DNA of 64,000 bases from sequence record DRR723986_21860. One strand, 5' to 3'. Position 1 is the first letter of the stretch. Each line of letters starts with the position of its first letter. Positions 2,195 to 50,000 of this stretch are shown piece after piece. The translations under genes were made by a program, and so were the position numbers. The notes below the pieces were generated by a model, which did no database searches, was not told the DNA's origin, and saw nothing but the letters and a program-made list of their open reading frames with translations.

Positions 2195-2221
2195 TAAAGA
2201 ATTAAGAGGCTTAATATAGAT

Positions 2222-5620: not shown

Positions 5621-5659
5621 GAAATTGAAATAATTGAGATAAAACTAAACTAAGCAAGA

Positions 5660-7426: not shown

Positions 7427-7434
7427 TATTACAG

Positions 7435-7980: not shown

Positions 7981-7986
7981 TATTTC

Positions 7987-8754: not shown

Positions 8755-8782
8755 TAGATTTTAATTAAGAAAAGACAATTAC

Positions 8783-10003: not shown

Positions 10004-10030
10004 TAGATTATAGCGTAAAAAGATTTTAAA

Positions 10031-11284: not shown

Positions 11285-11334
11285 GATTAGATAGAATTGA
11301 ATTAATAAGATTAGAAAAAATTAAAGAATAAATT

Positions 11335-15822: not shown

Positions 15823-15853
15823 AAAAATCCCGTCCTTATCAGAACGGGATTTG
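15821..15853. terminator. Hairpin terminator between convergent queG and the small ORF
   Basis: AAATCCCGT...ACGGGATTT stem with an A7 run on the left and T-rich sequence on the right. Confidence 0.75.
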
Positions 15854-15870
15854 TTATAAATTTTGTTCGT

Positions 15871-16056
15871 TTAAGCTTTCTTAAAAGCTACTCTTAAAAC
15901 ATCTGGATAGGTACTTCCGAAATTTGATATGCACCACTCCTTAAATCCATCAATTTCATCAGATTTCAACCAGCTTAACGCTTTCTTCAATTCTTTCTGA
16001 AATAATAATTTGTCGAAACTAACTTTCGTTAGGATCTCCTTGCATAATTCTAACAT
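15871..16056 (-). CDS. Small (61 aa) hypothetical protein
   Basis: ATG start, own TATTTTTG element (16082-16089, minus strand) and downstream terminator; ILTKVSFD..LF.KEL.KA resembles a small conserved Bacteroidota family (from memory). Confidence 0.75.
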   Translation of the reverse strand: MLELCKEILTKVSFDKLLFQKELKKALSWLKSDEIDGFKEWCISNFGSTYPDVLRVAFKKA

Positions 16057-16308
16057 ATGATTCGGTTCTTAAATAGTTCCACAAAAATACCCTTTTGTTC
16101 GACTAAACATTGAAAATTAAAGACGAACTTATTAACAATTCTTCTTTCAATTAACATTAGGTACTTTTTATAAGACGCTATTTGGTTTGGTTTATTTTCT
16201 ATAAGGTACTAAAAAAATGTTAATTCTCCTTAATAAAATTCTTTAGGATTTAAACTTTAACAGAATTTTTGTTGTGTAGAATATTTTAACAGTTCGTATC
16301 TTAGCTCA

Positions 16309-17163
16309 ATGAGAAAAATACTAATACTCTTTTCCCTAATTTCATGTGTTCAAATTAGCATGGCGAGTGTCGTTCAGGATACCTTATACATCTATAAAGA
16401 CACAATCACCATTGCAAACGTTAATGTGCAGATGTGTGTTTTTAGCGACAGCGCTTTTTTCAAACCAGAAAATTTTACGTTTGAATTGAATTCAGATGAC
16501 ACCCTAGATCTACATGTTATCAATAATGACACATTAGCTCATACCTTTACCATTGATGGTGTCCTCACTAGTTCAAATACAATTGCAGCCAGTTCTTCAG
16601 CTGACTTTCTAATCGACTTGCCATCTGATGGAGCTTTTAGGTATTATTCTGATATGACTTATGGCCATTTCCTTGGGGCTTCCGGAATTATAATGAAGGG
16701 GTACTCTTCATATCCAAAATTTTATTGGAATATGTTCGAGCAAAACGGCTCGTTGTCTTACGCCTTTGCTGATTTAACTGTGACAAATACACCATTAAAC
16801 TATGTTCCAGATTTATTTACGATAAATTTTGATGTTCATCCAAATTTAGAGTTTGATCCATTAGCCAAAGTCATTGGTAATGTGGGTGACACCTTAATCA
16901 TCACAGTTGTAAATTCAGGTCAAATGGAGCATACGTTACATTTTCACGGATTTCATATTGAGATTCTTGAAGCGTCCTTGAATACAAAAATGATTGGCTG
17001 GAGTAAAGATACTTTTCCAATTGAATTGACTGAAGTTATAGTAATGCGCTTAATTCCACATCAAGAGGGGCTTTATCCAGTGCATGAACACAACTTAATA
17101 AATGTAACTTCTTCCGGAGTATATCCGGGAGGAATGTTGAATTTAATTGACATACAGCCATGA
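16309..17163 (+). CDS. Multicopper-oxidase-domain protein A (two cupredoxin domains; HxxHxH and HxH present, no type-1 Cys)
   Basis: Signal peptide; HTLHFHGFH and YPVHEHNL...PGGM in the second domain; degenerate first domain (AHTF...YYSD...GH). Confidence 0.8.
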   Translation: MRKILILFSLISCVQISMASVVQDTLYIYKDTITIANVNVQMCVFSDSAFFKPENFTFELNSDDTLDLHVINNDTLAHTFTIDGVLTSSNTIAASSSADFLIDLPSDGAFRYYSDMTYGHFLGASGIIMKGYSSYPKFYWNMFEQNGSLSYAFADLTVTNTPLNYVPDLFTINFDVHPNLEFDPLAKVIGNVGDTLIITVVNSGQMEHTLHFHGFHIEILEASLNTKMIGWSKDTFPIELTEVIVMRLIPHQEGLYPVHEHNLINVTSSGVYPGGMLNLIDIQP

Positions 17164-18323
17164 GAAAGACATTGTTATTGTTAGGAATTTTGTTCAGTTC
17201 AATTGTTTACTCTCAAAATGTAGACACGTGGTTGGGAGCTCAAATGCTTGGAAACAAATTGTTAGACAATGGAAATATTGTTCAAATATGGGGTTATGGT
17301 TTGTATAGTCCTGGATTATGGGGGATAACAGTACCAGCACCTGTTTTAGAGTATAATCAAGGCGACACCGTGACACTTCATTTTATAAATGATTCACCTG
17401 AAGACCACACCATTCATCTACACGGCTTGGATGTACCTACAATTTATGATGGAGTACCTTCAACTTCTTTTGAAGTTAACCCAAATGATACTACAGAATA
17501 CGTTTTTATAGCTGAAAACGAAGGGTCATTTTTGTATCACTGCCATGTGCTCACAACACTGCACCTTACCATGGGAATGTATGGAATGATTGTGGTTCAT
17601 CCTGACCCTAATCAGCAGCTTGTTTATACAGGGGGGCCATCTTATAACATAGATTATAATTTTTTGAATTCAGATATGGACGAGTCGGTGAATGACAATC
17701 CTCTATCACCAGGTCCTTTCAATGAGTTTCAGATGGATTATTTTATGGTGAATGGATTGTCTGGTAATCAGTTGTATAATTCTACGGCTAATCATGTATT
17801 TGCACATGCAGGTGATTCGGTATTGCTGAGAATCGGTAGCATGGCCTATTCGAAATCGATCTATTATTTCCCACCAGAATTGAACGCTCGAGCTTATACA
17901 AGTGACGGTAGAGTCTTACCGAATCCTTTTAATTGTGATACGTTGGTTGTGCATTCAGGTGAGCGTTATGGCGTACTATTAACTCCAATTGCGGATGTAG
18001 ATACTGATATTAGAGTCGAATCTATTGAGATGAGAACAAATGAACTAAAACATACAAATCTAATAAGACTCAATACCGATTTAGGATTTGAAAGTGACAA
18101 CATGAATGATAATTTAATCTATCCAAACCCAACAAATGGTCAACTATATTTTGTGACAGATAACCCAGGATCAGAAATAGAGATTTATAATATACAAGGA
18201 GCAATAGTAAATAAATTACTAATTAATTCAAATCAAGAATTTTTAGATTTATCAAAATTGGAAAACGGCTCTTATTTCATCAAGTATCAACAAGAAACGT
18301 ATAAAGTCATTTTAGTAAAATAG
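17160..18323 (+). CDS. Multicopper-oxidase-domain protein B with a type-1 Cu site and T9SS type A C-terminal domain
   Basis: HTIHLHG and YHCHVLTTLHLTMGM; second cupredoxin-like domain (FMVNG...SGERY) lacks the His motifs; YPNP...KVILVK CTD; ATGA overlap with the upstream gene. Confidence 0.85.
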   Translation: MRKTLLLLGILFSSIVYSQNVDTWLGAQMLGNKLLDNGNIVQIWGYGLYSPGLWGITVPAPVLEYNQGDTVTLHFINDSPEDHTIHLHGLDVPTIYDGVPSTSFEVNPNDTTEYVFIAENEGSFLYHCHVLTTLHLTMGMYGMIVVHPDPNQQLVYTGGPSYNIDYNFLNSDMDESVNDNPLSPGPFNEFQMDYFMVNGLSGNQLYNSTANHVFAHAGDSVLLRIGSMAYSKSIYYFPPELNARAYTSDGRVLPNPFNCDTLVVHSGERYGVLLTPIADVDTDIRVESIEMRTNELKHTNLIRLNTDLGFESDNMNDNLIYPNPTNGQLYFVTDNPGSEIEIYNIQGAIVNKLLINSNQEFLDLSKLENGSYFIKYQQETYKVILVK

Positions 18324-18438
18324 ACTTTTTTTCTGGAAGCCTTAGGTGAAATTAAAACGACCGTGTCTTATTCTTTAAATACCTTTCTAATACTAAAACA
18401 CTGTGAGTCAATCACTTTTTGCTGTTGGAATTTGCAGG

Positions 18439-19134
18439 TTATAGAACAACAATTTTACTTTCTGAAATAACTTGATCGTCTGCCAAAACTTTGTAGAAAT
18501 AAACTCCAGTACCAGTTGAGATATTCAAATTTAATTGTCCATTACCTTCAACCAGTTTCTTACTTTGAATTCTCTGACCCATTTTATTGAATAAGATAAG
18601 TTCAGCTTCCTTACTTCCAGAATACTTGATATTAAAGGTACCATCTGTACTCGGGTTTGGGTATATCATCAAATTAATAAAGTCTGTTTGCTCATTAATT
18701 CCAACGGTACTAATAATACCAGTCCAAGTCAGCAATACATAATCGTTTGGCATATCCTGTTGAAAAAGTCTCACGGTGACAGTGCTCTCACCAGCATTTC
18801 CGTTAGGATAGTAATGTAAATTCATAATTCTATTTAGTGCCGAAGTGGGCATGTTAAAGTCAAAAGTCGAGGTGCCTATTGCATGACATGCTGAAGGATC
18901 ACAAACCGAATATTGCCAGCCCGGTTCAACGTTAGCGGACTCAACTTGCCAAGTCATTGGAAAGCTGGTTGTACTATCATTGTATAAAATGAATTTAGAA
19001 TCAAAATCTGAATCAGTAATATTTCCATAAAATGTGGTATCCGTATCTGAAACTGAAAAGCTCTGTGCCATTATAGATGAACTTCCAAAGAGAGCACAGA
19101 TTAAACTAGCAATTATTTTCTTTTTCATAATCAT
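18439..19134 (-). CDS. T9SS type A sorting domain protein (small Ig-like domain with W..SVCDPSAC)
   Basis: Signal peptide ending MA-Q; IYPNPS...GVYFYK...KIVVL CTD. Confidence 0.85.
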   Translation of the reverse strand: MIMKKKIIASLICALFGSSSIMAQSFSVSDTDTTFYGNITDSDFDSKFILYNDSTTSFPMTWQVESANVEPGWQYSVCDPSACHAIGTSTFDFNMPTSALNRIMNLHYYPNGNAGESTVTVRLFQQDMPNDYVLLTWTGIISTVGINEQTDFINLMIYPNPSTDGTFNIKYSGSKEAELILFNKMGQRIQSKKLVEGNGQLNLNISTGTGVYFYKVLADDQVISESKIVVL

Positions 19135-19164
19135 TTCATTTAAAGCAGGTTAAAGATAGCGATT

Positions 19165-22598: not shown

Positions 22599-24344
22599 TT
22601 AGTAGTTTTTAGGATTTCTAATTTCATTTTTCACCTCTCCGCAACCCATCATTTTTTCACCATAATAGGGGTTCCTAATCTCATTTTCTTTGCTTAACCA
22701 ATAACCACCTTCTTTACTGTTGGCCATTGGACAATACATTTCATAAGATTGGCCTCCAATGCCAAAAGATTTAGTTACAGCAATCATTGATTTTGACAGC
22801 TTACCGAAAGCCTTGCGCTGCTCTGTAATCAAGTTTGAGCTCTGAATTAATGTTGCCTGGTGTTCAATTTCTTCTGATTTTTTCATCCAAAAAATATGGG
22901 CTTCACCTTTTACCTTTTTCATATCAACTTTGCTTAGCTTAATGGTTAATTCTTCTGCTGCGCTACTTGCTGATTTGGAATCAGAGTTTACAAGACTTTC
23001 TTTTACTTGGATATATTCGCTGAATACAAGCTCTAATTGATTCTTGAAAGCATCAGAAGCATCCAAAACGAAATCAGGAGTGCTTTCAATAGTCTTTGTT
23101 TGATCTTGAGATGATAATTGATTCATCATACTTGCTTGGTTGTTCAACTGAGCGGATGCATCAATAACAAATGCCCCTTGTGTTACAACTTGTTCACCTG
23201 ATTTTAAGCCTGATTTTATAATGTAGTTGTCGCCTATAGATGTTCCAAGAACCACTTCTCTATATTCAAATGACGGGATTTCGGTGTTTTCTAATTGTAC
23301 ATAAACAACTGATCTTGTTCCTGTCCACATAACTGATGATTTAGGAATTGTTAATCCTGAAGAAGCGTTTGTATTAGATGAAAGATAACCCCTTACAAAC
23401 ATCTCTGGTTTCAGACTAGTGGTAGAATTTGAAATCTCTGCTCTAATCTTTGCGGTTCTTGTTTGAGAATTAATGGAAGGATCTATAAAGACAATTTTAG
23501 ATTCGTAATTAATTCCTGGATTAGACGTGGTTGAAAATGAGATGACGTCTCCGATATTCACGGTTGAAATGTCTTTTTCATATACATCAAATACAACCCA
23601 TAGATCCTTTAAGTTTTGAATATCAAATAGCACATCACCTTTACTAATATAATCGCCAACTGAAACTTTCTTTTTTTGAACAACTCCTGAGTATGCTGCG
23701 TAAATATTAAAGGTTTCTATTACCTCTTTAGCTGATAAAATTTCTTCAATTTGGTTATCGGTGATTTTCCAAAACTTTAATTTGTTTTTAGCTGCTTCAA
23801 ATAATTGCGGTTGACTTGCCTTGATTTTTTGAGCTTCAAGCAATTCTTTTTGAGCGGTGATTAGAAGTGGCGAATAAATGGAAGCAATTTTCTGACCTTT
23901 TGCAACCTGCTCTCCAGTGAAACTAATATATAGCTTTTCAATACGACCAGGAATGTGAGATACAATACTGGCTGCATTCGTTTCATTGACTTCTATTTTA
24001 CCTGCTACTTCTAAATCGGATTTTTCCGAATTTTTAGAACCGACAGTTGTGGTTTGGATTTGAGAGATTTTTACAGCCTCTTCAGACATTTCTAAAACAA
24101 AAGGATTATTGCTAGAATTTTCATCCAAGGGTATCAAGTCCATTCCACAAATAGGGCAAGCCCCAGGCTCATTTGATCTAATTTGTGGGTGCATTGAGCA
24201 GGTCCATATTTCATTATTACTTTCTTCGGAGCCGTGTAAATGTTCAGAATCAGCTGTTTTTGCAGAAGAATCTGCACCAAAAATTAGCCATCCTAAAAAG
24301 ACCCCGATAATCAGTGTTCCTACACTTATTAAATATTTATTCAT
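22599..24344 (-). CDS. cusB: CusB-like RND periplasmic adaptor with N-terminal heavy-metal-binding domain and C-terminal DUF3347
   Basis: WTCSMHPQIR...CPICGMDL, GRIEKL...YSP.L..AQ.EL, LKPEMF; C-terminal YCPMA...WLS...IRNPYYG..M..CG. Confidence 0.88.
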   Translation of the reverse strand: MNKYLISVGTLIIGVFLGWLIFGADSSAKTADSEHLHGSEESNNEIWTCSMHPQIRSNEPGACPICGMDLIPLDENSSNNPFVLEMSEEAVKISQIQTTTVGSKNSEKSDLEVAGKIEVNETNAASIVSHIPGRIEKLYISFTGEQVAKGQKIASIYSPLLITAQKELLEAQKIKASQPQLFEAAKNKLKFWKITDNQIEEILSAKEVIETFNIYAAYSGVVQKKKVSVGDYISKGDVLFDIQNLKDLWVVFDVYEKDISTVNIGDVISFSTTSNPGINYESKIVFIDPSINSQTRTAKIRAEISNSTTSLKPEMFVRGYLSSNTNASSGLTIPKSSVMWTGTRSVVYVQLENTEIPSFEYREVVLGTSIGDNYIIKSGLKSGEQVVTQGAFVIDASAQLNNQASMMNQLSSQDQTKTIESTPDFVLDASDAFKNQLELVFSEYIQVKESLVNSDSKSASSAAEELTIKLSKVDMKKVKGEAHIFWMKKSEEIEHQATLIQSSNLITEQRKAFGKLSKSMIAVTKSFGIGGQSYEMYCPMANSKEGGYWLSKENEIRNPYYGEKMMGCGEVKNEIRNPKNY

Positions 24345-24351
24345 ATCTCTA

Positions 24352-26829
24352 TTATTTTATAGTTTGTGCTCGTAGCCTTAAAGCATTCGCAATGACTGAA
24401 ACTGAACTGAAACTCATAGCCAATGCAGCAATCATTGGTGATAAAAGCAAACCAAAAACAGGAAACAAAACACCTGCGGCTATTGGAATTCCGATTGTGT
24501 TATAGGCCAAGGCGAAAAATAAATTCTGTTTGATATTCTTCATTACTTTGTGACTTAAAACCTTTGCTTTTACAATGCCATGTAAATCACCTTTTACCAA
24601 TGTGACATCTGAGCTTTCAATGGCTACATCAGTACCTGTTCCCATAGCAATTCCAACATCTGATAAAGCCAAAGCTGGGGCATCATTGATACCATCTCCC
24701 GCCATAGCTACAATGAATCCTTTTTCTTGTAACTCTTTAACCTTGTTTAGTTTATCTTCAGGCAAACAGTCAGCTACGAATTCATCTAATTCAACTTCTT
24801 TTGCCACAGCTTTGGCTGTATAGGCATTGTCTCCTGTCATCATGATAACCTGAATTCCTTTAGACTTCAATTCTTTTATTGCTTTTTGACTTGACTTTTT
24901 AATGGCATCAGAAATAACCAGATATCCAACCAACTTCTTACCAACTGCGATCAATGGAACGGTTTTACCTTTTTGCTGTTCAGTTTTTGATTGATCAAGA
25001 ATCTCACCTTTAAGTTGAATACCATGTTCGCTCATTAATTTTTCGTTGCCAACCAAAACAATTTTGTCGTCAATAATAGCTTTAACCCCCATCCCCGTGA
25101 CAGAATCAAAATCATTAATTTCTTTTAGTTCTATGTTTTTACTTTTAGCAAAAGAGACTGTCGCTTCAGCTAAAGGATGTTCACTTTGACTGTTCACTGA
25201 AGCCACTAACTGTGTTAGTTGATCAATGGAATATTCTGAGGTTGAAACTACTTTTTGAACAGAAGGCTTTCCTTCAGTAATAGTGCCCGTTTTATCTATG
25301 ATTAAGACATTTACTTTGTTTAATTTTTCAAGAGACTCAGCACTTTTAATTAAGACACCTTCTTGGGCTCCTTTTCCAACGCCAACCATCACTGACATAG
25401 GGGTAGCCAAACCTAAAGCACATGGGCAAGCAATTATCAAAACCGCAATTGCGTTGACAAAAGCATATACTAATGTTGGTTCTGGTCCAAGAAATTTCCA
25501 AAGTATGAATGTAATTATGGAGATCACAATAACAATCGGGACAAAATAGCCAGAAATTTTGTCAGCTAAATTTTGAATTGGTGCCTTACTTCTACTTGCA
25601 TTATTCACCATGTGTATGATTTGAGATAGTAAAGTGTCAGCTCCAACTTTCTCTGCTTCCATAACAAAAGACTGCTTTCCATTAATTGTACCTGATGTGA
25701 CCTTATCATTTTTTTCTTTATCAACTGGAACTGGTTCACCAGTGATCATTGATTCGTCAATCGAACTTTTTCCCTCTCTAATTACACCATCAACAGGAAT
25801 TTTATCACCAGGCTTAACCCTTAGTAGATCACCAATTTTAATATCATCTATACTTATTTCCTCTTCTTCATCTTCGTTAATGCGGATCGCCTTATTTGGA
25901 GCAAGTTTTAACAGTTCTTTCACCGCATTATTTGTTTTGCTATGGGCTTTAGCTTCTAAAAGTTGCCCCAAAAGAACTAAGGTCAAGATTACTGTGGCTG
26001 CTTCAAAATAAACATGAACAGTTCCGAAATTAGTTTTAAAATCATCTGGGAAAAGATTTGGAAAAATCAAACCAAATAAACTAAATAACCAAGCCACACC
26101 TGCACCTATTCCGATAAGCGTGAACATGTTAAGATTCATTGTTCTTATTGAAGTATAGGCGCGTTTAAAAAACATCCATGTAGCATAAAAAACAACAGGT
26201 ATAGAGAACCCAAACTGAAGCCAATTCCAATATTTGATATGCATCAATTGATATAAAGGATTGTCTTTTATCATTTCTGACATGGCAATGAAGAAAATTG
26301 GAAGAGTGAAGCTTGCAGCGATTATGAACTTCTTCAGCAATTTTTTATAGGTTTTTTGCTCCGCAGTTTCATTTGATTCTTTTGGTACCAAATCCATTCC
26401 ACATTTTGGACAGGATCCAGGTGAATCTTTCAGCACATCTGGATGCATAGGGCAGGTGTACATTTCTTGATTGGCTGCAATAGACACTTCGGCTACTAAA
26501 TCCATTCCGCAAACAGGACAATCTCCTGACTCATTATACGTTTTATCTCCTTCACAATGCATGGGACAGTAGTAAGTACCTTTAATTCCTTTTTCGTTTT
26601 TTTTACGAGTTTTAATTTCCTCATCCATTGAGTGAATCATATACTTTGATCCGAGAAATGGTTTTTTTAATTTTTCTAAAGGAATATGTTTAGACATTTC
26701 AAGTTCAGCTTCATTGTTTTCTAAATCAACTTGAACCTGTTCTATAAACTCAATGGATTCTAATGTTTCTTTAACGTGACTTTTGCAGCCATTGCACGTC
26801 ATTCCTGATATTTTATATGTATGTTTCAT
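24352..26829 (-). CDS. copA: Cu(I)-translocating P1B-1 ATPase
   Basis: HMA GMTCNGC, two YxCPMH...CPxCGM modules, TGE, CPC, DKTGT, HP, GDGIND, YN and MxxSS TM ligands. Confidence 0.94.
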   Translation of the reverse strand: MKHTYKISGMTCNGCKSHVKETLESIEFIEQVQVDLENNEAELEMSKHIPLEKLKKPFLGSKYMIHSMDEEIKTRKKNEKGIKGTYYCPMHCEGDKTYNESGDCPVCGMDLVAEVSIAANQEMYTCPMHPDVLKDSPGSCPKCGMDLVPKESNETAEQKTYKKLLKKFIIAASFTLPIFFIAMSEMIKDNPLYQLMHIKYWNWLQFGFSIPVVFYATWMFFKRAYTSIRTMNLNMFTLIGIGAGVAWLFSLFGLIFPNLFPDDFKTNFGTVHVYFEAATVILTLVLLGQLLEAKAHSKTNNAVKELLKLAPNKAIRINEDEEEEISIDDIKIGDLLRVKPGDKIPVDGVIREGKSSIDESMITGEPVPVDKEKNDKVTSGTINGKQSFVMEAEKVGADTLLSQIIHMVNNASRSKAPIQNLADKISGYFVPIVIVISIITFILWKFLGPEPTLVYAFVNAIAVLIIACPCALGLATPMSVMVGVGKGAQEGVLIKSAESLEKLNKVNVLIIDKTGTITEGKPSVQKVVSTSEYSIDQLTQLVASVNSQSEHPLAEATVSFAKSKNIELKEINDFDSVTGMGVKAIIDDKIVLVGNEKLMSEHGIQLKGEILDQSKTEQQKGKTVPLIAVGKKLVGYLVISDAIKKSSQKAIKELKSKGIQVIMMTGDNAYTAKAVAKEVELDEFVADCLPEDKLNKVKELQEKGFIVAMAGDGINDAPALALSDVGIAMGTGTDVAIESSDVTLVKGDLHGIVKAKVLSHKVMKNIKQNLFFALAYNTIGIPIAAGVLFPVFGLLLSPMIAALAMSFSSVSVIANALRLRAQTIK

Positions 26830-26886
26830 TGTGTTTTTTTTGTCAAAATTCGTTTATCACAGTATTTATTTCGTGCACTTCTTTGT

Positions 26887-27450
26887 TTAAATCATGTCTA
26901 ATTTTTGTCTATTTAATTTTGAAATGAATTGTGTGGGTGTTTGACCAGAAGCTTTTTTAAATTGTCTGGCAAAATGCTGAGGGGAACTGAAATCAAGTTC
27001 CTGGCTTACTTCAGAGATATTTAATTCACCGTAGGATAATAACTCCTTGGCTTTTTCTATTTTGTGTCTTAAAATGAATTGACTAATGGTTTGTCCTTGA
27101 TGTTTAGAGAAAACCTTACTCAAATAAGAATAGTTGAGGTTAAATTTTTGGGCTATAATTTGAGCGAATGTCAGCTCGTTATTTATGACACCAGAATAAT
27201 GAATTAAATCAACGATTTCAGACTTAATTGAATTCACTAGCTGGCTAGTTTTATCTATGATTAATTCAAAACCATTTGTGTGAAGAGATTCCTCAATCAA
27301 CTTCAATTTTTCAGATGATAATCTACCTTCAAAAATGACCATTCCTAATTTTACTTTCACCAGCTTAATTCCGTGTCTTTGCATAATCGATTCAACAGAT
27401 AAAATACATCTGTCACAAACCATGTTTTTGATGTGCAATTGATTTTCCAT
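26887..27450 (-). CDS. AraC-family regulator with an N-terminal metal-binding (HMA-like) domain
   Basis: IKNMVCDRC N-terminus; YSYLSKVF...KAKELL...FSSPQHFARQFKK..G.TPTQF HTH. Confidence 0.9.
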   Translation of the reverse strand: MENQLHIKNMVCDRCILSVESIMQRHGIKLVKVKLGMVIFEGRLSSEKLKLIEESLHTNGFELIIDKTSQLVNSIKSEIVDLIHYSGVINNELTFAQIIAQKFNLNYSYLSKVFSKHQGQTISQFILRHKIEKAKELLSYGELNISEVSQELDFSSPQHFARQFKKASGQTPTQFISKLNRQKLDMI

Positions 27451-27452
27451 AA

Positions 27453-28685
27453 TTAATACGCCGTTAACTTTTCAATTTTAGCAAACACTAGTTTTGATTG
27501 CAGTTGAGCATTTTCTATTTTGATTTCATTTTGAAGTAAATCATTATATAATTCAAGAATCTCGTCAAACCCAGAACCAGAACCAGAGTAATTTGAAAGC
27601 AGCACTTCAACGGCAAGTTTTGTGGTCTCATTTTGCTTCTTATAAAATGTTATTTGACTTAAGAATTTATCATAATCCGTTTTAAGGTTTAATAGTTGGC
27701 GCATTATTTCATCTTCTAAAGCGGTTTTTTGAAACCCTATGCCTTCTTGAATCAAAGTTTCTTCTGTCTGAATGGATTTGTTCTTTTTTTGATATAATGG
27801 AATTGTGAGCATAACTTTAGGGATTAAAATATCTCTTCCATTATAGGTAGGGTTCGCATCTAATCGTTCTCCTACCAAGCTATAGTCTATACCTATACCT
27901 AACATAGGAGAATTCATTTTTTGACTCAATAATTGTCTATTAGAAGAAGCTTCGATTTGATGGGTTAATTGCGCCATTTTTGGGTGCTTACTAAGGTTGC
28001 TTCTAAATTTGGTAGTGTCAAATTCTACAATCTCTAAATCGTCCTTTTCACCACTAGGGATAATCATGTTTTGGAGCGGCGCTTTAATTAATTGATTTAT
28101 AATTACAGAAAGTTGTTGGTTTTGAAAATTGATTTCAGCGATTTCTTGATCGATTTTTTGTTTTCTTAATTGTACACGATATACATTTGCGGTAGTGCCA
28201 TTTCCACTCTCAACTTTTGAAAGGGCTATTTGTTCTAATGATTCATATAGCTCTTTGTTTTCCTTTAATAATTCAGTTTTTTGAAAGTTAAAAACCAGAC
28301 GATAATAGGCTTCTTTTAATTGATAAACTAGATCTAATTTCAACAAAGCGACTTCATAATATTTCGCTTCAGACATTTGGATCATAACCGCCTCCCTAGT
28401 TTTAAAAGTTCCAAACCAAGGAAATATCTGTGTTGCGCTCACCATAGTAATTTGTGGCCCTAATCTTGTTTCCGGTCTCAAGACTGGGACTCCTACACCA
28501 ATTGTAGGATTTGACAGTTGACTTTCTTGTTGAATTCGCTCTTTTGCCGCTAAAAACTGATTATTGACAGCCTTTAACTCTGAATTATTTGCGACTAATT
28601 TTTCAAGAAGATCGGACAATTTTTGACTGTATAGCTGGGTAGAACTAAAAAGTGCCAGAAAGAGAATTAATAATCTATTTTTCAT
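27453..28685 (-). CDS. TolC/CusC-family outer membrane efflux protein
   Basis: Signal peptide, ETRLGPQ...Q.FPWFG motif, long amphipathic helices, overlaps cusA. Confidence 0.88.
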   Translation of the reverse strand: MKNRLLILFLALFSSTQLYSQKLSDLLEKLVANNSELKAVNNQFLAAKERIQQESQLSNPTIGVGVPVLRPETRLGPQITMVSATQIFPWFGTFKTREAVMIQMSEAKYYEVALLKLDLVYQLKEAYYRLVFNFQKTELLKENKELYESLEQIALSKVESGNGTTANVYRVQLRKQKIDQEIAEINFQNQQLSVIINQLIKAPLQNMIIPSGEKDDLEIVEFDTTKFRSNLSKHPKMAQLTHQIEASSNRQLLSQKMNSPMLGIGIDYSLVGERLDANPTYNGRDILIPKVMLTIPLYQKKNKSIQTEETLIQEGIGFQKTALEDEIMRQLLNLKTDYDKFLSQITFYKKQNETTKLAVEVLLSNYSGSGSGFDEILELYNDLLQNEIKIENAQLQSKLVFAKIEKLTAY

Positions 28686-31600
28686 CTGAAGTGTTTTTAA
28701 TTTTATTAAGTCTTAAGCTCCATTCTTTCCATATACAATAGAGTACAGGTACTGTAAACATTGTTATTACATTCAACACCATCCCGCCGAATGAAGGAAT
28801 TGCCATTGGTAGCATGATATCTGCTCCCTTACCAGTGGAAGTCAAAACAGGGAGCAGAGCCAAAATTGTGGTTGCCGTAGTCATCATTGCTGGCTTAACC
28901 CTTCGTAATCCTCCCTCAACCACAGCATCTCTTATGCCTGCTATGGTGTTTGGTTTATTTGTTTTGAAACTGTCTTTCAGAAATGTTCCGACTAAAACAC
29001 CATCATCTGTAGCAATGCCAAAAAGTGCTAAGAAACCTACCCAAACTGCCACACTTAAATTGATGGTACCTATTTGAAACAAGTCTCGCATGTTTGTACC
29101 GAAAACATCAAAATTCATGAACCAATCCTGACCGTAAAGCCAAATCATGATAAATCCTCCAGAGAATGCAACAAAAACACCTGAAAAGACGAACAAGGAA
29201 GTCATTATCGATTTAAAGTGAAAATAGAGTATCAAAAGGATAAGAACTAAGGCAATAGGAACCACTAAGCTAAGTCTTTCATTGGCTCTAATTTGTTGCT
29301 CATAGTTTCCAGCAAATCTGTAAGTTATACCTTTCGGGACAACTAATTCTCCGGAGTCAATTTTTTGGTTGATTAGCTTTTGAGCATTCTGAACTACTTC
29401 AACTTCAGCGTATTCATCCATTTTGTCAAACAATACAAAACCAATTAAAAAACCATCTTCACTTTTTATTGCTTGAGGTCCTTGCTCATATTTTACTTCA
29501 ACTAAATCACCGAGAGGAACTTCAACACCTGACGGAGTGCTAATTAGAATGTTTTTAATCTTATCTGGGTTATCTCTTAGTTCTCTTGGGTAACGAATTC
29601 TAATATTATATCTTTCTCTTCCTTCAACCGTTGTAGTCATTATCATCCCGCCTATAGCGGTTTGAATCTGATTTTGGACGTTAATTATTGAAAGACCATG
29701 TTTAGCAATTTCCTCCCTTTTTATATCTAACATCAGATAAGGTTTGCCCACAATTCGATCGGCAAAAACTGCCTCTATTTTAACTCCTTCAACTTGTTTC
29801 AAGTATTTTTCAATCTCTTTACCAAATGACTCAATGGTCTTCAAGTCTGTGCCTTGAATTTTAACGCCCATGGGCGCACGCATACCGGTTTGAAGCATAA
29901 CTAAACGCGTTTCAATTGGTTGAAGCTTTGGTGCTGAAGTTAGTCCTGGTAAATTGGTTGCTTTAACTATTTCATTCCAGATATCATCAGGAGATTGTAT
30001 ATGATCTCTCCATTGTCGGTAGTATTTTCCATTTTCGTTCGGAATTAGATTGCCAGTTGAGTCTTTCTCATATTCACCATCATTATTTACTTGATACCTG
30101 ATTCGCCTTCCATCTTCATCAGTCTTGTACTCAGATTTATAAATGATGATGTTTTCATACATTGACATTGGAGCAGGATCTAATGAACTTTCTACACGTC
30201 CTGCTTTACCGACTACCATTTCAACTTCTGGAATGGCAGTGACAGACATATCCAGTAATCTCAGATTAGATTCATTCATCTCCATACCCGTATGTGGCAT
30301 AGAGGTGGGCATTAAAAGGAAAGAACCTTCGTTCAAGCTTGGCATAAATTCCTGTCCTGTACGACTAAAAATTTGATATCCTGCAAAAAGTAAGAGAAGG
30401 ATTAGTCCTACAAAAACATACTTAATTCGGATCAAAAAGCGCAGAATTTGTTCGTAGTAATGAATGACTACGTAAAAGGTGCTAATTAATAGTCCTATGA
30501 TCAGAGCGACAAAAACGAAATTGGTAAAGTTTGATTTGTTGACTCCTAAAGGCATCCAAATTGTCGCCAATAACCAAGCAACTATAGTAGCATAAAGGAT
30601 ATTTTTGAAATACTCAAAACGCTTAAGCCATAGTTCAGATTTCGTCTCATTAAATTGAAGGGATAAAATTCCTGTAATACCAACTGTTAATCCAAATATC
30701 CCGAAGAAAGAATAATCAGTGAACAATAAAATAACGGATAGAATTGAAAGAATGCCGTTTGTGAAATAAGGTACTGTTTTATCTTTGCTTTTTAATTTGA
30801 ATATCTGTTCAGCCAGTGCAGGCAAAATCATAATTGCCAACATTATGGCAGCAAGAAGGGCAAACGATTTTGTAAATGCCAATGGTCTAAATAGTTTTCC
30901 TTCGGCAGCTTCCATTGTAAATACTGGAAGGAAACTTACAACTGTTGTAGCTACTGCAGTAACTATAGCGGAAGCAACTTCTGTAGTCGCTAAATAAACT
31001 GAAGTTTTTATTGACTGGGTGCTTGGAGCCTCTTTAATTTTAAGAACCATGCTTTCAGTCATGACAATACCCATATCTACCATTGTCCCCACGGCAATTG
31101 CTATCCCAGATAAGGCAACTATATTGGCGTCTACGCCAAAATATCGCATAGCAATGAAGCACATTAATACTGCAACAGGTAAAGTTGCGGAAATAAGGAG
31201 TGAAGACTTCAAATGAAGGAGCATTAACAGGACAACAATAATTGTAATTAAAATTTCCAGACTAAGCGCTTCCTCCAATGTGCCTATCGTTTCCTTTATC
31301 AACTCACTTCTATCATAAAATGGGACAACTGTAAGTTGTGATACAGTGCCGTCAGCCAAAGTTTTAGTAGGCATTCCACTTGAAAGCTGTAAAACCTTTT
31401 CCTTTACATTATTTATTACTTCTATAGGATTTGCACCATACCTTGCAACCACAACACCTCCTGCCACTGATGCTCCAGACTTATCTAGGATTCCTCTTCT
31501 CGTTGCGGGTCCAAGATGTACCGTTGCAATATCTTTAATTCTAATAGGAACATTATCTACCATCTTAACGACACTGCTTTCTATGTCTGTAATAGATTTT

Positions 31601-32361
31601 ACATAGCCTAGACCTCTAACAAAATATTCAGCCTTATTTATTTCAACAGTTTGCGCGCCAACGTCTAAATTACTTTGCTTTGTAGCAGACATCACTTGCT
31701 CCAGAGAAACGTCATAAACTCTCATTTTATCTGGATCTACATCTACCTGATATTCTTGAACGAAGCCACCAATTGAGGCAACTTCAGAAACCCCTTCTGC
31801 CGATTGAATGGCATATTTTACATAAAAATCTTGAGCGCTTCTAATTTCGTTTAAATCCCAACCCCCGGTGGCGTTTCCATCTTTATCTCTACCTTCTAAG
31901 GTATACCAATAAATCTGACCTAATGCTGTTGCATCTGGTCCTAAAGCTGGTTGTACACCATCAGGTAAAAGACCGGAAGGAAGTGAGTTAAGTTTTTCTA
32001 ATATTCTACTTCTGCTCCAATAGAATTCAACGTCTTCTTCGAATATCAAATAGATACTTGAGAATCCGAACATTGAATTACTACGAACACTTTTAACTCC
32101 TGGAACACCTAGCAATGCAGAAGTCAATGGGTAAGTAATTTGATCTTCTACATCTTGTGGTGAACGTCCCATCCATTTGGTGAAGACAATTTGTTGGTTT
32201 TCGCCAATATCGGGTATAGCATCAACGGCTACTGGGTCACGAGGTAATCCACTTTCTACGTCAAAAGGAGAAGTAACTAAGCCCCATCCTATAAACAATA
32301 AGAGTAAAAGCCAAGCAACAAGTTTATTATCAAGAAAGAATTTTATTATACGATTTAACAT
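28675..32361 (-). CDS. cusA: CusA/SilA-family heavy-metal efflux RND permease
   Basis: VDAIPDIGENQQIVFT, LGPDATALGQ, GIAIAVGTMVD; Met triad equivalents LLMP, PMSM and RLVML; R.KPAMMT. Confidence 0.92.
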   Translation of the reverse strand: MLNRIIKFFLDNKLVAWLLLLLFIGWGLVTSPFDVESGLPRDPVAVDAIPDIGENQQIVFTKWMGRSPQDVEDQITYPLTSALLGVPGVKSVRSNSMFGFSSIYLIFEEDVEFYWSRSRILEKLNSLPSGLLPDGVQPALGPDATALGQIYWYTLEGRDKDGNATGGWDLNEIRSAQDFYVKYAIQSAEGVSEVASIGGFVQEYQVDVDPDKMRVYDVSLEQVMSATKQSNLDVGAQTVEINKAEYFVRGLGYVKSITDIESSVVKMVDNVPIRIKDIATVHLGPATRRGILDKSGASVAGGVVVARYGANPIEVINNVKEKVLQLSSGMPTKTLADGTVSQLTVVPFYDRSELIKETIGTLEEALSLEILITIIVVLLMLLHLKSSLLISATLPVAVLMCFIAMRYFGVDANIVALSGIAIAVGTMVDMGIVMTESMVLKIKEAPSTQSIKTSVYLATTEVASAIVTAVATTVVSFLPVFTMEAAEGKLFRPLAFTKSFALLAAIMLAIMILPALAEQIFKLKSKDKTVPYFTNGILSILSVILLFTDYSFFGIFGLTVGITGILSLQFNETKSELWLKRFEYFKNILYATIVAWLLATIWMPLGVNKSNFTNFVFVALIIGLLISTFYVVIHYYEQILRFLIRIKYVFVGLILLLLFAGYQIFSRTGQEFMPSLNEGSFLLMPTSMPHTGMEMNESNLRLLDMSVTAIPEVEMVVGKAGRVESSLDPAPMSMYENIIIYKSEYKTDEDGRRIRYQVNNDGEYEKDSTGNLIPNENGKYYRQWRDHIQSPDDIWNEIVKATNLPGLTSAPKLQPIETRLVMLQTGMRAPMGVKIQGTDLKTIESFGKEIEKYLKQVEGVKIEAVFADRIVGKPYLMLDIKREEIAKHGLSIINVQNQIQTAIGGMIMTTTVEGRERYNIRIRYPRELRDNPDKIKNILISTPSGVEVPLGDLVEVKYEQGPQAIKSEDGFLIGFVLFDKMDEYAEVEVVQNAQKLINQKIDSGELVVPKGITYRFAGNYEQQIRANERLSLVVPIALVLILLILYFHFKSIMTSLFVFSGVFVAFSGGFIMIWLYGQDWFMNFDVFGTNMRDLFQIGTINLSVAVWVGFLALFGIATDDGVLVGTFLKDSFKTNKPNTIAGIRDAVVEGGLRRVKPAMMTTATTILALLPVLTSTGKGADIMLPMAIPSFGGMVLNVITMFTVPVLYCIWKEWSLRLNKIKNTSDEK

Positions 32362-35463: not shown

Positions 35464-35473
35464 AATCTAAGTT

Positions 35474-44091: not shown

Positions 44092-47000
44092 GTGAATAAA
44101 GGTCTACTCATAACACTAACGCTTATTTGGGTGAATTGTTCGTTTGGACAAACCGACACTTCTAAGCTAAAATATCCCATCAAGGATTATTATGATTATA
44201 CCCAAAAAACAGATCCGCGTATCGGATTACAAGACCCTTCAAATTTAAATACAACTGTAGTTTATAATCCTGAAACTGGATTGTATGAAATCTATCAAAT
44301 GATAGGCGGTGTGCAATACAGATATCCAACGGCAATGACTCTAGAAGAGTACATGGCCTATAAAAGAGAACAAGCTCTAAAAAACGGATTTCAGGAAAAA
44401 ATCGAACAAGCCAACGACCAAGAACACGGTAAAAATCTAATACCAGGTTTAAGTGTTAAGAACGAAGCTTTTGATGTAATTTTTGGTGGTGACGAAATCA
44501 ACATTCGTCCGCAAGGTTCTGCTGAATTATCATTTGGGGTGAACATTTCTAAGTATGACAATCCGGTTCTACCAATCAAACAAAGAAGGGTAACAACCTT
44601 TGATTTTCAACAACGAATTAACCTAAACTTAGTGGGTCAAATTGGAGATAAATTAAAGTTGACTATTGCACAAAATACAGAGGCGACCTTTAATTTCCAG
44701 AACAACGTTAAAATTGAATACACTGGATACGAAGATGAGATTATCCAAAAAATTGAAGCAGGGAATGTTAGTTTACCATTAAACACAACTTTAATTCAAG
44801 GGTCTCAAAGTTTGTTCGGTATACGGTCAGATCTAAGATGGGGACGCTTCACCACTAATTTGATTCTAGCACAGGAAAAAGGTAAAAGACAAGAAATTAA
44901 CGTTTCAGGAGGAGCACAAGTTCAAGAGTTTGAAGTAAAAGCAGATAACTATGAGGCCAACAAGCACTACTTCTTAAATTATTATCATAGAGAGCATTAT
45001 GATGAGGCAATGCAAACCATGCCTTTGGTACAGTCTGATGTACAAATCACAAAAATAGAAGTTTGGGTAACCAACAGAATTAACAAAGTCGAGAACACGA
45101 GAAACGTATTGGCATTTACCGATTTAGGTGAAGAGTCTCCTGTGAATTATGAAGGAGCACCAACTGCAGTAATGGGAAGTACCGTACCTGACAATGATGC
45201 CAACTCGCTCTATTCAGATTTATCTGCCGCCCCTCAAGTGCGAGAGTTTTCAAATGCTGTACCATTTTTATCAGCTCTTGGACCAACGCAGTCTGGACCT
45301 TTCAATCAGGCAACTCACTATGAAAAAGTTGAGAACGCAAGACAACTTTCAGAACAAGAGTTCACTTACAATGCACAATTGGGGTATATTTCATTGAAAT
45401 CTCCTTTGAATCAAGATGAGGTATTGGGTGTAGCTTATCAATATACGTTTGGAGGTAAAACTTATCAAGTAGGTGAATTCTCAAATGATGTACCAGTTGA
45501 AGAGGGTTCAAAAAGTGCATTAATCTTAAAACTATTAAAGCCAACTATTGTTAATCCGGCCAACAAAACTTGGGATTTGATGATGAAAAACGTTTACTCA
45601 ATTGGTGCATACCAAGTGAGCCAAACTGATTTTATCGTTGATCTTTATTACAATAATCCAAGAACATCTGTTGACATCAATTATCTGCCTTATGATGGTG
45701 TAAATAATAAATTGTTGATGCAAACCATGGATCTGGATCGTCTGAACATCCAAAATAATTTACAGCCAGATGGTCGATTTGATTATGTTCCAATTCAATA
45801 CATGGGGAACAAAGCAACTAACGGAGGAACAATTGACCCAAAAACGGGACGTGTTTTCTTTACCACCATTGAGCCGTTTGGTAAAACTTTAAAAGATAAA
45901 TTGGAAGCTTCGGGACAACTTTCTAATCTAGAAGTTAATGGTATTGTGTATCAAGAGTTATATGATTCAACTAAAACTGCGGCTCAACAAATCCCCAATA
46001 AAAATAGATTTAAACTGAAAGGTGAATATAAATCATCCGTTAGTTCTGACATTTCTTTGAATTCTTTGAACGTTCCTGAAGGTTCAGTAACGGTGACTGC
46101 TGGTGGTGTGAAACTTACCGAGGGAACAGATTATACCGTAGATTACAACTTAGGTAGGGTGAAGATATTAAACCAAGGAATTCTTGAATCTGGCACACCA
46201 ATCAAAGTACAGTTAGAAAGTAATTCGTTATTTGGATTCCAGCAAAAGTCATTAGTAGGAGCGCATTTTAATTATGAATTCAATAAAGATTTTAATTGGG
46301 GTGCTACGGTGATGAATTTGACAGAAAAACCATTGACTCAAAAGGTAAATGTTGGAGATGAACCCATAAGTAATACTGTTGTAGGCACAGACATATCATA
46401 TCGTAGAGACGTTCCGTTTTTAACCAAATTGGTGGATTTATTACCGATTATTTCAACGAAAGAAAAATCAAGCATCAATGCTTATGGTGAATTTGCATAC
46501 TTAATACCAGGCACTCAACGAGCAATTTCAAAAGAGGGAATATCTTATATTGATGGTTTTGAGGGCTCACAATCGGCAATTGATATCAAAAACTTCTCAG
46601 CTTGGAAATTAGCTTCTGTACCTCAAGGTCAGCCAGCCATGTTCCCTGAAGCACACACCAATTTATCTAGCCTAAGTTCTGGATACAACAGAGCAAAACT
46701 AGCCTGGTACGTGGTGGATCCAACAACCTTTTATCAAAATTCAACAGTAACTCCTGAACATTTGCAGAATAACAATGACGTATTGTGTGATTCAAGATGG
46801 CACATCTTAAGTCAAACCGCATTATTCCCGCAACAACAACCTGTAACGGGTACCCTAAATAATATTCCAGTTCTAGATTTGGCATACTATCCATCTGAAA
46901 GAGGTCAGTATAATTATGATACCACTGAGACGTTTATTGATGCTGATGGTAAGTTCACCAATCCAAGTGACCGTTGGGCTGGAGTAATGCGATCTTTGAC

Positions 47001-50000
47001 CACTACAAACTTTGAAACAGCAAATATTCAATTTATCCAATTTTGGATGTTGGACCCTTTTAATGATGATGCAACTGAAGGTGGAACAACAAATATGGGA
47101 GGTGGAGATTTGTATTTCAACCTAGGTAATATTTCAGAAGATATCTTACCAGATTCGAGAAAAAGTTTTGAAAATGGATTACCAGCAAGTAGTAATTTTA
47201 CGGCGGATGACTATGATACTACCAAATGGGCCGTTGTTTATAACCAGCAGGTAATTGTCAATGCTTTTGATAACAATGTTAGTTCAAGAAGATATCAAGA
47301 TGTTGGATTAGATGGACTTTCAGATGCAGCCGAAGCTGCTTGGTTCAGTGATTTTGTGAACTGGGTAAATTCAAGTGGATTGAATGCGGATGCTAAAGCA
47401 CAACTGGTAAGTGACCCATCATCTGATAATTATCAATACTATTTGGATACACAACACGATATTGATTCCAACAACATTGTTCGTAGATATAAAAACTTCA
47501 ACGGAACAGAAGGGAATTCACCAACCGCAGAGATGTCAGATTCCATTACTGGAGGAGCAGGTTATACAATTCAAGCAACTACTACACCAGATATCGAAGA
47601 TTTAAATCAAGATAATAACCTAAGTGAGACTGAAAGTTATTTCCAGTATCATGTAAGTTTAAGACCGCAGGACATGCAAATAGGTCAAAACTTTATTACC
47701 AACGCACAAGTTGTTCAGCAAGATGATGCCTGTGGGGGAAAGACAGAAACATGGTACCAATTTAAAATTCCAATTGAAGAGTTTGATTCAAAAGTGAATG
47801 GAATAGCGGACTTTAGATCTATACGATTTATTAGAATGTTTATGAACGAATTCGATCATCCTGTGGTGGTTCGATTTGCCCGATTAGAATTGATTAGAGG
47901 TGAGTGGCGTAAATATCTTGATGATTTGGATGAGCCAGGTGAGATTATACAAGATGATCCTAATTCAACTGAGTTCAATATTGCAGCAGTGAACTTAGAA
48001 GAAAATGAAGGTAAAGATCCAGTAGGATATTGGACACCTCCAGGGATTTTAAGAGAGCAAGATCAAGGTTCAATTAACTTAAGACAATTGAATGAGCAAG
48101 CATTATCATTAGAGGTTTGCGGATTAAAAGACGGAGAGGCAAGAGCTGCATATAAAAATGTAAGCTTCGATATCCGATCATATAAGAAATTGAAAATGTT
48201 CATCCATGCAGAACAACAGCAAAAAGCTGGTTGGGTGGAGTCAGATTTACAAGATGATCAATTGACGGTATTCATTCGATTAGGAACAGATTTCGAAGAC
48301 AATTATTATGAGTATGAAATTCCTTTAAAATTAACGGCATGGGGAACTTCTCCAGGTTCTGACGCCAATGCCGATTTAATTTGGCCTACAGCGAACAATT
48401 TAGAGGTGGTTTTCGATTCGTTGACCCAATTGAAAATCTTCAGAGATGCTCTGGGTAATGTGCCAAATGGCACCGAGTATGTCAAGGTATTGCCGCCTGA
48501 TGCAAATGGAACCGTGACAAGAATTAAAGTAAAAGGAAATCCTAACCTCCAAGGAATGAAAGTGATCATGATTGGGGTTAGAAATCCCGGGAAAGATACC
48601 AATCACCCATGGATGGCAGCTGAAGATGGTCTGGATAAATGCGGAGAAGTTTGGGTGAATGAGTTGAGGTTGACTGACTTTGATCAAAGAGGTGGATGGG
48701 CAAGTACTGCTAGGGTAAATGTTCAATTGGCAGATTTCGCTACAGTGAACTTAGCGGGGAATTATTCTACACCAAATTGGGGGTCAATTGAGAAAAAGGT
48801 AAGCGAACGTCAAAGAGATACTCAGAAATCATTCGATTTATCTACCAACGTTGAATTGGGTCAATTTTTTGGTAGAAAAGCCAACATACAAGTGCCGTTT
48901 TATTATGGATATTCAGTAGCAGCTATTGATCCAGAATTTGATTTATTGGCTCCTGATATCAGACTGAACGAACTTCCACCTGATTTGAAGGCTGAAAGAG
49001 CCAAGATGTCTAGAGATTTGACAATCCGAAAATCTTACAATTTTACCAATGTCAGAAGAGAAAGACCTGCAGGAAAAGATGTACATTTTTGGGATATTGA
49101 AAACTGGTCCGCTACTTATTCTTACAATGAATTATACAGGCGAGATATCAACACAGAATATGACAGAACAAGAACCTGGAGGGGTGGGTTAAATTATACG
49201 TATTCTAACAAACCAATTGTAGTTGAACCTTTCAAAAACGTTAAGGCCTTGCGAAAGTCAAAGTGGTTTAGAATTATCAAGGACATTAACTTTAATCTAG
49301 GACCTAAATCATTTAGCTTTAATAATGACTTGACGAGAATGTATAATGAACGAAAAAACCGCGATTTATCTGGAGATTCATTGGCACCAGTCTTTGATCC
49401 AACAGTGTTAAAAAACTTTGCTTGGACAAGGCAGTATGACTTGAAATATGACTTCACTAAACAGTTGAAATTTACATTCAACGCGAATAACTCGTCTATT
49501 TTGACTGAACCGAACGGGGTAATTAATAGAAAATCAAATGACCCTGAGGAAATCGAGGCCTATAGAGGTTTTATAAATGCCTTCCAAAGTGCCTTTAATG
49601 GCCGAAGAGGTTCGTTTTTAGATTCTAATAATGTGATGCAGTATGTGGATGGAGCAGATTCAATTGGAGTAGGAGGTTACAACATGAACTACGGTCATGC
49701 GTATAACCTAACCTACAAGTTACCATTGAACAAAATTCCGATCACAGATTGGATATCTACCAATGTAAAATTAAGGGGAAGTTATGATTGGCAACGTGCA
49801 CCATTAGCACAACCGTTGTACGGAAATACCATCCAAAACTCTAGAAATTTCAGTGTAAACGGGCAATTAAATTTTGTAAATCTTTATAACAAAATAGATT
49901 ACTTTAAGCGCATCAATAATGATGGTAAAAAAGGCAGAGGAGGTAGAGGTCGCCAAACGAATGAACCGAAAAAAGAGACAAAAGAAGAGAAAGCAGAGCG

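Follow-up and report, generated by a model that had tools for sequence, protein, structure and literature searches.

The window analysed here, a stretch of 64,000 nucleotides from sequence record DRR723986_21860, carries two overlapping genes, A and B, whose products belong to the multicopper oxidase (MCO) group of cupredoxin proteins. We consider it likely that the two products are subunits of an obligate heteromeric two-domain MCO, a reading that is based on their sequences and on the comparison of homologous loci. A consists of a dead cupredoxin domain 1 followed by a live, ligand-bearing domain 2. B consists of a live domain 1 with the type-1 (T1) copper site, a dead domain 2 and a C-terminal sorting domain (CTD) for secretion by the type IX system (T9SS). 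As judged by sequence, both proteins are paralogues of the type C two-domain MCOs and appear to have suffered complementary losses of copper ligands after a gene duplication.

Gene A (16309..17163, plus strand), delimited from the open reading frame list and Pfam, codes for 284 residues that start with a signal peptide. Its C-terminal domain 2 (16786..17160, plus strand; residues 160-284) bears the motifs HTLHFHGFH and HEH but has no T1 cysteine; re-translation places HTLHFH at 16930-16947 (residues 208-213) and HEH at 17083-17091 (residues 259-261). The four putative histidine ligands of the trinuclear cluster, H211, H213, H259 and H261, are all located in this domain. Pfam assigns A to the MCO/cupredoxin superfamily through Cu-oxidase_2 (PF07731; 36.6 bits at a cut-off of 20.4). 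The initial annotation had overlooked the N-terminal cupredoxin domain 1 (16372..16713, plus strand; residues 22-135), which has lost its copper ligands except H78. An AlphaFold2 (AF2) model of A was obtained with a pLDDT of 94.1 and a pTM of 0.91, and a Foldseek search with the whole chain gave 2zwn (TMq 0.80) and 3g5w (TMq 0.81) as best matches. The model superposes on both structures over its full length, and A is thus also a two-domain protein. In the alignment, domain 2 of 2zwn is the counterpart of the C-terminal half of A, its HAMHSHG and HDH corresponding to HTLHFHG and HEH of A. No chain closer to A than the canonical type C enzymes was found in the PDB. Neither Pfam nor NCBIfam detected a sorting domain on A, as the initial annotation had stated, and A alone is not a T9SS cargo; the A proteins of Bacteroidota comprise 276-293 residues and have no tail. 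The possibility that A reaches the cell surface by itself as a lipoprotein was rejected, a lipobox-like motif being present in just four of 79 A proteins.

Gene B (17160..18323, plus strand) codes for 387 residues, again beginning with a signal peptide. Its domain 1 (17277..17609, plus strand; residues 40-150) harbours HTIHLH at 17406-17423 (residues 83-88) and HCHVLTTLHLTMGM at 17538-17579 (residues 127-140), both confirmed by re-translation. These motifs provide a T1 site (H83, C128, H135 and M140) and four cluster histidines (H86, H88, H127 and H129), all within domain 1. The domain 2 of B (17712..18059, plus strand; residues 185-300) is recognised as a cupredoxin by Pfam Cu-oxidase (PF00394; 21.6 bits, residues 192-278) and has lost both histidine motifs; further Pfam matches of B are Cu-oxidase_3 (PF07732; 72.2 bits) and Cu-oxidase_2 (PF07731; 53.8 bits). 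By phmmer, B aligns to 3g5w over both domains (E 7.2e-21; residues 57-275 of B on residues 30-241 of 3g5w), and in this alignment the HVHAIHTHGH of domain 2 of 3g5w is replaced by YSKSIYYFPPE. Together with the lack of any conserved histidine in domain 2 among 81 aligned rows, this bears out the earlier description of a second cupredoxin domain devoid of histidine motifs. The tail of B (18117..18308, plus strand; residues 320-383) matches the sorting domain families Por_Secre_tail (PF18962; 49.5 bits, E 5.3e-13) and, in NCBIfam, TIGR04183 (T9SS type A; 40.7 bits). With this domain, a Sec-type N-terminus and SprA encoded in the window, B qualifies as a T9SS type A cargo.

Other identities were considered for B. 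Histidines flanking the T1 cysteine on both sides, as present in B, are the pattern of MCOs as opposed to NirK, and an assignment as NirK was rejected (TIGR02376, 50 bits versus a cut-off of 296.3). Likewise, CueO and CopA-type oxidases were rejected (NF008205, 59 bits versus 525; TIGR01480, 71.5 bits versus 478.95); A and B have two cupredoxin domains each, not three as in these oxidases. The source names across the B family are generic ('multicopper oxidase domain-containing protein', 'FtsP/CotA-like', 'plastocyanin').

The stop codon of A and the start codon of B overlap in an ATGA (17160..17163, plus strand) that couples the translation of the two genes. Among 80 homologous pairs, in which the start codons of B were chosen heuristically, the overlap comprises four nucleotides in 43 pairs and one nucleotide in 17, and the genes of the rest are at most 50 nucleotides apart. 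Re-translation at the exact coordinates reproduced the reading frames, the ATGA overlap and the motif set of both genes as first described. The N-termini of both proteins show a short basic run followed by a hydrophobic run, typical of Sec substrates, without a twin-arginine (RR) motif; the signal peptides were judged by the hydropathy of the N-terminus.

The best sequence and fold matches of A and B, the blue copper oxidase of Nitrosomonas europaea (3g5w) and the metagenomic mgLAC (2zwn), are type C enzymes. Two-domain MCOs have been described as trimers in which the cluster ligands come from two protomers, and the T1 site of the type C enzymes as residing in the N-terminal domain (PMC13151041). 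The two-domain arrangement is present in A, as seen from the model, and in B, as seen from the alignment to 3g5w. B has an N-terminal T1 site, whereas domain 1 of A has only H78; A in turn shares with the type C enzymes a domain 2 with HxxHxHGxH and HxH but without cysteine. The known type C enzymes are homotrimers of one chain with eight cluster histidines. In contrast, A and B have four each, in opposite domains, and B additionally differs by its sorting domain. In their mode of action A and B would very probably resemble the type C enzymes all the same. Ligand counts in 81 pairs agree with the earlier proposal that neither chain has the full ligand set and that A and B together are complete. 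Since the cluster of two-domain MCOs lies between protomers, a full eight-histidine cluster would be expected here only where domain 1 of B meets domain 2 of A. We know of no MCO in which the trinuclear cluster is built with fewer than eight histidines.

Aligned with hhalign, the profiles of the A and B families match colinearly through the two domains (probability 99.8%, E 2.9e-28, 18% identity). The notion of a single gene cut into halves was therefore rejected: A and B are each two-domain proteins. Of the 'split' MCO proposed in the initial annotation, the complementary ligands stand, but the word 'split' does not apply to two full-length colinear paralogues.

A scan of one genome per species yielded 222 relatives of A, and 79 loci were kept. 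In all 79 of them B follows directly after A on the same strand, and the same holds for nine of nine usable loci with room in relatives of the nearest genome. Among 41 such relatives A was detected in 11 and B (at E values up to 1e-20) in 10, in the same genomes; in the eleventh genome with A, G001, a contig end cuts the copy 97 codons into A. The carriers belong mostly to Flavobacteriales (Crocinitomicaceae, Parvicellaceae, Salibacteraceae and Vicingaceae), Cytophagales and Saprospiraceae, and include cultured species such as Brumimicrobium glaciale, B. oceani and Lishizhenia tianjinensis. B is the single Cu-oxidase_3 match genome-wide in three of five relatives (G002, G006 and G027). Two pairs per genome occur as well, once in tandem (L086) and otherwise as L015/L036, L033/L040 and L058/L077; in L086 and in L015/L036 the two copies fall into different B clades.

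The ligands are conserved throughout these pairs. H211, H213, H216, H259 and H261 of A are kept in 81 of 81 pairs and N262, L263, G275 and M276 are invariant in the same 81 rows, while H208 is kept in 74 and H78, the sole conserved histidine of domain 1, in 76. On the side of B, H83, H86 and H88 are kept in all 81 pairs and H127, C128, H129, H135 and M140 in 80 of 80, one row being truncated. Because of this invariance the ligand motifs are far beyond what chance would produce. Constraint is concentrated in the ligand-bearing domains: columns conserved to at least 90% amount to 27 of 125 in domain 2 of A and 34 of 111 in domain 1 of B, compared with 4 of 114 in domain 1 of A and 11 of 116 in domain 2 of B.

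More distant relatives were found by an exhaustive profile search with A, which returned 2542 cluster representatives (clusters at 50% identity) at E<=0.001, 519 at 1e-10 and 150 at 1e-30. Outside the Bacteroidota family these include many proteins of 300-340 residues that combine a twin-arginine N-terminus with a domain 1 that is dead and a domain 2 that is live, referred to below as the Tat type (twin-arginine translocation). A metagenome scan with 13 Tat-type A-like queries gave 437 relatives, and 80 loci were kept, the focal genes of which are 64 A-like genes, nine A-like genes of an HCH variant and seven canonical one-chain enzymes. At least 900 nucleotides of downstream sequence are available for 50 of the 64 A-like genes, the other 14 running into contig ends. 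In all 50 testable loci the next gene encodes an MCO, and 42 of these partners show the exact pattern of B, with one HCH, one HxHG and no HxH in domain 2. The RR motif is present on 43 of the 50 A-like proteins, whereas a hydrophobic N-terminus is absent from 43 of the 50 B-like partners, several of which start within one to seven residues of the mature core. In the control set of Bacteroidota, a hydrophobic N-terminus was detected in 77 of 79 A and in 77 of 79 B proteins.

The nine loci with the HCH variant (L153-L156, L158, L160, L163, L164 and L166) code for an A-like protein in which the HxH of domain 2 reads HCH, without the downstream histidine and methionine of a T1 loop. A B-like gene comes next in most of them.

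A lone export signal for two proteins implies that the complex is formed before export. NxrA/NxrB and hydrogenases are examples of enzyme pairs that hitchhike through the Tat system, and one signal shared by two subunits is the arrangement on record for complexes translocated together (PMC3578206; PMC9251779). The distant A-like relatives, with a twin-arginine signal on A and none on the partner, have the same layout as these hitchhiker pairs. Among the indirect lines of evidence for a heteromer we consider this layout the strongest, and it is independent of the Bacteroidota data. The pair of the window itself is not of this kind, as both of its proteins have Sec signals and B alone has the T9SS signal. 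Export of A piggyback on the T9SS signal of B would draw added plausibility solely from the likeness to the single-signal Tat-type relatives.

The distribution of export signals could also be read in another way. A might be a non-catalytic assembly, copper-loading or export-escort factor that docks transiently on the cluster face of B in the periplasm (in the cytoplasm in the Tat type), the exported B then acting alone or as a homo-oligomer with a smaller copper site. An escort of this sort would be expected to bear the export signal when its client has none, as in the Tat type, and could do without the T9SS signal that only B has; the poor conservation of domain 1 of A would fit as well. The heavy constraint on domain 2 of A is difficult to reconcile with such a role, given that the four cluster histidines and H216, N262, L263, G275 and M276 are invariant, and B alone would have just four of the eight histidines of a trinuclear cluster. 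Moreover, one natural fusion, P0122 (686 residues), retains both parts in one chain: A (residues 1-284) is joined by a non-hydrophobic linker to B (residues 337-677) with its sorting domain and without the signal peptide of B. We therefore regard an escort function as unlikely and favour A as a subunit of the oxidase. P0122 emerged from the exhaustive profile search; a word-index search for fused A relatives of 498-2000 residues retrieved none.

Other combinations of these units were noticed in the same searches. P0227 (745 residues) and P0228, both high-GC, join three parts in one chain: a type C unit of the canonical form, an A-like one (domain 1 dead, domain 2 live) and, at the C-terminus, a single cupredoxin. 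The lower-GC relative P0242 has only the A-like unit, accompanied by extra domains and by a cupredoxin at the C-terminus. P0231 is a giant of 6257 residues with about ten tandem MCO units (10 HCH and 19 HxHG motifs).

The relation between the Bacteroidota and the Tat-type pairs was addressed by a tree of 120 two-domain cores, computed with IQ-TREE in quick mode from 16 Bacteroidota pairs (taking each fifth one of the 79), 38 Tat-type pairs (non-identical, with 230 or more aligned residues) and 12 canonical enzymes. The Shimodaira-Hasegawa-like approximate likelihood ratio test (SH-aLRT) gave a support of 100 for the 54 A-like cores together, 100 for the 54 B-like cores together and 87 for the 12 canonical enzymes. 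Bacteroidota A and B form mirrored subclades (100 and 99), each of which includes the respective member of the pair of locus L168, which is of the Bacteroidota type. The separate A-like and B-like clades thus point to one old duplication with complementary losses before the lineages parted.

These data bear on the assumption that A and B act independently, as homo-oligomers with partial copper sites and separate functions that share no more than their regulation. The homologues were expected, if the initial annotation was right, to be adjacent or fused, and this is what was found: they are adjacent in 79/79 genome and 50/50 metagenome loci, with one fusion and no frequent unlinking. Presence and absence agree in the 41 relatives save for the contig-cut G001, the exactly complementary losses have been kept since a duplication older than the divergence of the Bacteroidota and Tat types, and the Tat-type relatives share a single export signal. 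Independent action is accordingly very improbable, and the heteromeric oxidase remains the favoured reading. Comparative support for it is strong (linkage, invariant histidines, domain conservation and the Tat hitchhiker layout); the complex itself, its subunit ratio and the path taken by A are what we infer from these comparisons.

We propose the following course of events. A single gene for a type C two-domain MCO would have been duplicated once, long ago, after which the cluster ligands disappeared from domain 2 of B and from domain 1 of A, in the latter together with the T1 site. In the present-day enzyme the substrate would be oxidised at the T1 copper of B (H83, C128, H135 and M140), and the electrons would pass via the H127-C128-H129 bridge to a cluster held by H86, H88, H127 and H129 of B and H211, H213, H259 and H261 of A, where dioxygen would be reduced to water. 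Both proteins would enter the periplasm by the Sec pathway, and the CTD would then route B to the T9SS. Lacking a sorting signal, A would be either a passenger on B or part of an enzyme that is active before export. The T9SS is described as moving folded proteins in a review (PMC9251779). In a bolder version, which we put forward as possible but rather doubtful, A and B would stand for an old, widespread and undescribed class of heteromeric MCOs, assembled into a ceruloplasmin-like ring with a single active site whose trinuclear cluster would exist only between the two different gene products, and in Bacteroidota the T9SS would carry the copper-loaded A-B complex across the outer membrane on the lone sorting domain of B. 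Two metagenome loci, L091 and L092, have the gene order B-like, A-like, B-like, with a full T1 site and the cluster histidines of domain 1 in both B-like proteins; one may speculate that they hint at a trimer of one A and two B.

The surroundings of the pair in the window comprise several further T9SS cargos and copper-related genes. Gene C (18439..19134, minus strand; 231 residues) is convergent to B and lies 115 nucleotides downstream of it. It codes for an Ig-like domain with invariant W73, C78 and C83 and for a T9SS sorting domain, the latter being present in all 43 scanned members of the C family. No Pfam family was found for the N-terminal domain of C, and its AF2 model (pLDDT 87) gave generic beta-sandwich matches only in Foldseek. 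In 39 of the 80 pairs from Bacteroidota (L026-L089), A is immediately preceded on its strand by a gene for a C-family protein of about 230 residues. The closest relatives of the window, L011 and L012, have no C nearby, and the link of C to A and B in the window is for this reason uncertain. C is a possible accessory and might be a surface anchor or partner. A scan of 15800-19300 revealed 14 promoter-like sites versus a mean of 15.1 in shuffled sequence, thus no excess, and no terminator-like site between B and C.

In 14 of the 79 Bacteroidota loci (L026, L028, L033, L040, L041, L046, L051, L058-L062, L068 and L081), B is followed by genes for an MbnP-family protein and a di-haem MauG/MbnH-like peroxidase. 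MbnP and MbnH are tied to copper handling in other bacteria, and an extracellular MbnP beside a secreted MCO looks like a copper module; for the representative of this MbnP family, the match to the T9SS sorting domain is weak and falls below the cut-off. When HMA, CopA-, CusB- and CusA-like and Cys/His-rich genes are added, a metal-linked neighbour is present in 22 of 79 loci with their short flanks. In the window, a heavy-metal/copper efflux island identified by Pfam (22599..32361, minus strand) starts 4 kb downstream of B. It codes for a CusB-like protein and a copper-type P-type ATPase, both with HMBD and the latter also with HMA, as well as for an AraC regulator, an outer-membrane factor and a resistance-nodulation-division (RND) pump. 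Taken together, the MbnP, MbnH-like, HMA and copper efflux neighbours are a weak sign of copper handling, perhaps with Cu(I) or a different metal ion as the substrate.

The T9SS itself is represented in the window by the outer-membrane translocon SprA (44092..51636, plus strand; 2514 residues; PF14349 SprA_N, E 1.2e-179), preceded by ruvA; SprA is also present in the relatives G001, G002 and G005. At least five proteins of the window have a T9SS sorting domain, namely B, C and the products of 19165-21222, 32988-34442 and 37919-39451. A gene for a choice-of-anchor V/Reeler-like protein (21315-22187, minus strand; NF041895, 75 bits) has the T9SS proteins on one side and the efflux island on the other. 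A DUF6029 protein and an Omp28-like protein are encoded at 34522-37126 (minus strand), 16 kb from A-B, and in L011, L012, L014, L017, L031, L044 and L057 the same two genes immediately precede A-B on its own strand. Their distance and opposite strand in the window suggest that an inversion or insertion separated them from A-B. At the other end, 785-13125 (plus strand) contains the operon of an alternative complex III, with genes for a multihaem cytochrome c, an Fe-S subunit, an NrfD-like protein, ActD and a cytochrome c, followed by subunits II and I of a cytochrome c oxidase.

The neighbourhood also has a bearing on the site of action. An active A-B heteromer could work in the periplasm, with the sorting domain of B removing or displaying surplus B, or with only a fraction being exported. 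The Sec-type N-termini of both proteins, the efflux genes 4 kb away, which deliver copper to the periplasm, and the Tat-type relatives, which are periplasmic enzymes, would all be in accordance with such a location. On the other hand, B proteins throughout the Bacteroidota family have kept the sorting domain, with PNP, G347, G370 and Y372 retained to at least 90% among 79 aligned B proteins, and the sorting domains on the neighbouring C proteins and, by the weak match, on the MbnP-like ones suggest an extracellular module. A purely or mainly periplasmic enzyme is in our opinion improbable, and we retain the heteromer with an exported B as the more convincing model. The claim of the initial annotation that B has a T9SS CTD and A has none was in any case verified by both Pfam and NCBIfam.

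Near-identical DNA is present in metagenomes from seawater, biofilm, ballast water and biofloc. Two contigs from RNA libraries span the junction of A and B: X15 (1287 nucleotides) covers 16327-17590 with 36 differences, and X18 (226 nucleotides) covers 17122-17347 with two. These bridging contigs are weakly compatible with co-transcription of the two genes. Parts of the window that are not covered, and RNA runs with a small share, are uninformative.

Several points weigh against an exported A-B heteromer. The RNA-library contigs may stem from DNA present in the libraries, and contigs are no proof of a single transcript. The A and B families diversify together (Pearson 0.87, adjusted Rand index (ARI) about 0.85), but adjacent genes share their history, and this non-independent agreement was for that reason not used as an argument for binding of A to B. 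The fusion P0122 deserves little weight, being a singleton cluster on one 7.9-kb contig and possibly an assembly error. Furthermore, A and B cannot take turns in a ring of three members, and any trimer would hold at most one complete cluster beside one mismatched interface. A has no T9SS signal, and if B were exported alone the two would be parted; no co-export of a signal-less partner by the T9SS is reported in the literature searched. Finally, the copper link of the neighbourhood is limited to the 22 of 79 loci mentioned above, with short flanks.

Some known oxidases resemble the proposed complex in part. Nmar_1354 of Nitrosopumilus maritimus (PDB 9cck), which is among the sequence and fold matches, is likewise a two-domain trimer with non-identical protomers. 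Its alpha-alpha-alpha-prime 'heterotrimer' is, according to the description consulted, the product of one gene whose protomers differ by the loss of a pendant cupredoxin domain (PMC11761707). Each protomer of Nmar_1354 has the full ligand set, unlike A and B. The heterodimeric laccase-like enzymes of fungi (POXA3/NLAC) resemble the A/B pair in that an MCO works with a second polypeptide. In these fungal enzymes the small subunit is not known to give copper ligands to the large one, which is a complete three-domain MCO. The partner is characterised in the account cited as a small protein of unknown function (PMC10443355). A trimer of A and B would share the ring layout of ceruloplasmin, but with three chains from two genes. 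In ceruloplasmin one polypeptide folds into six cupredoxin domains arranged as a ring, which has three T1 sites and just one trinuclear cluster, situated at one of the domain interfaces. A heteromeric two-domain MCO with complementary ligands encoded by two genes was not described in the literature searched, a body of literature that leaves out most subscription journals.

Two-domain MCOs pass for homotrimers, and in sequence surveys a gene counts as an oxidase if all four copper motifs are present. If A and B form the proposed complex, many genes whose sole annotation is 'multicopper oxidase domain-containing protein' would code for half-enzymes that are active in pairs only and that escape single-gene expression screens. 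The pair would then represent a natural case of duplication and complementary loss at an inter-subunit metal site, and a living intermediate in the much-debated evolution of asymmetric multi-domain oxidases, for instance laccase and ceruloplasmin, from trimeric two-domain ones. In the bolder version given above, A would be the first passenger (hitchhiker) cargo of the T9SS, mirroring Tat hitchhiking in other phyla, and the A/B pair offers a concrete test case for the carriage of a signal-less partner by this system.

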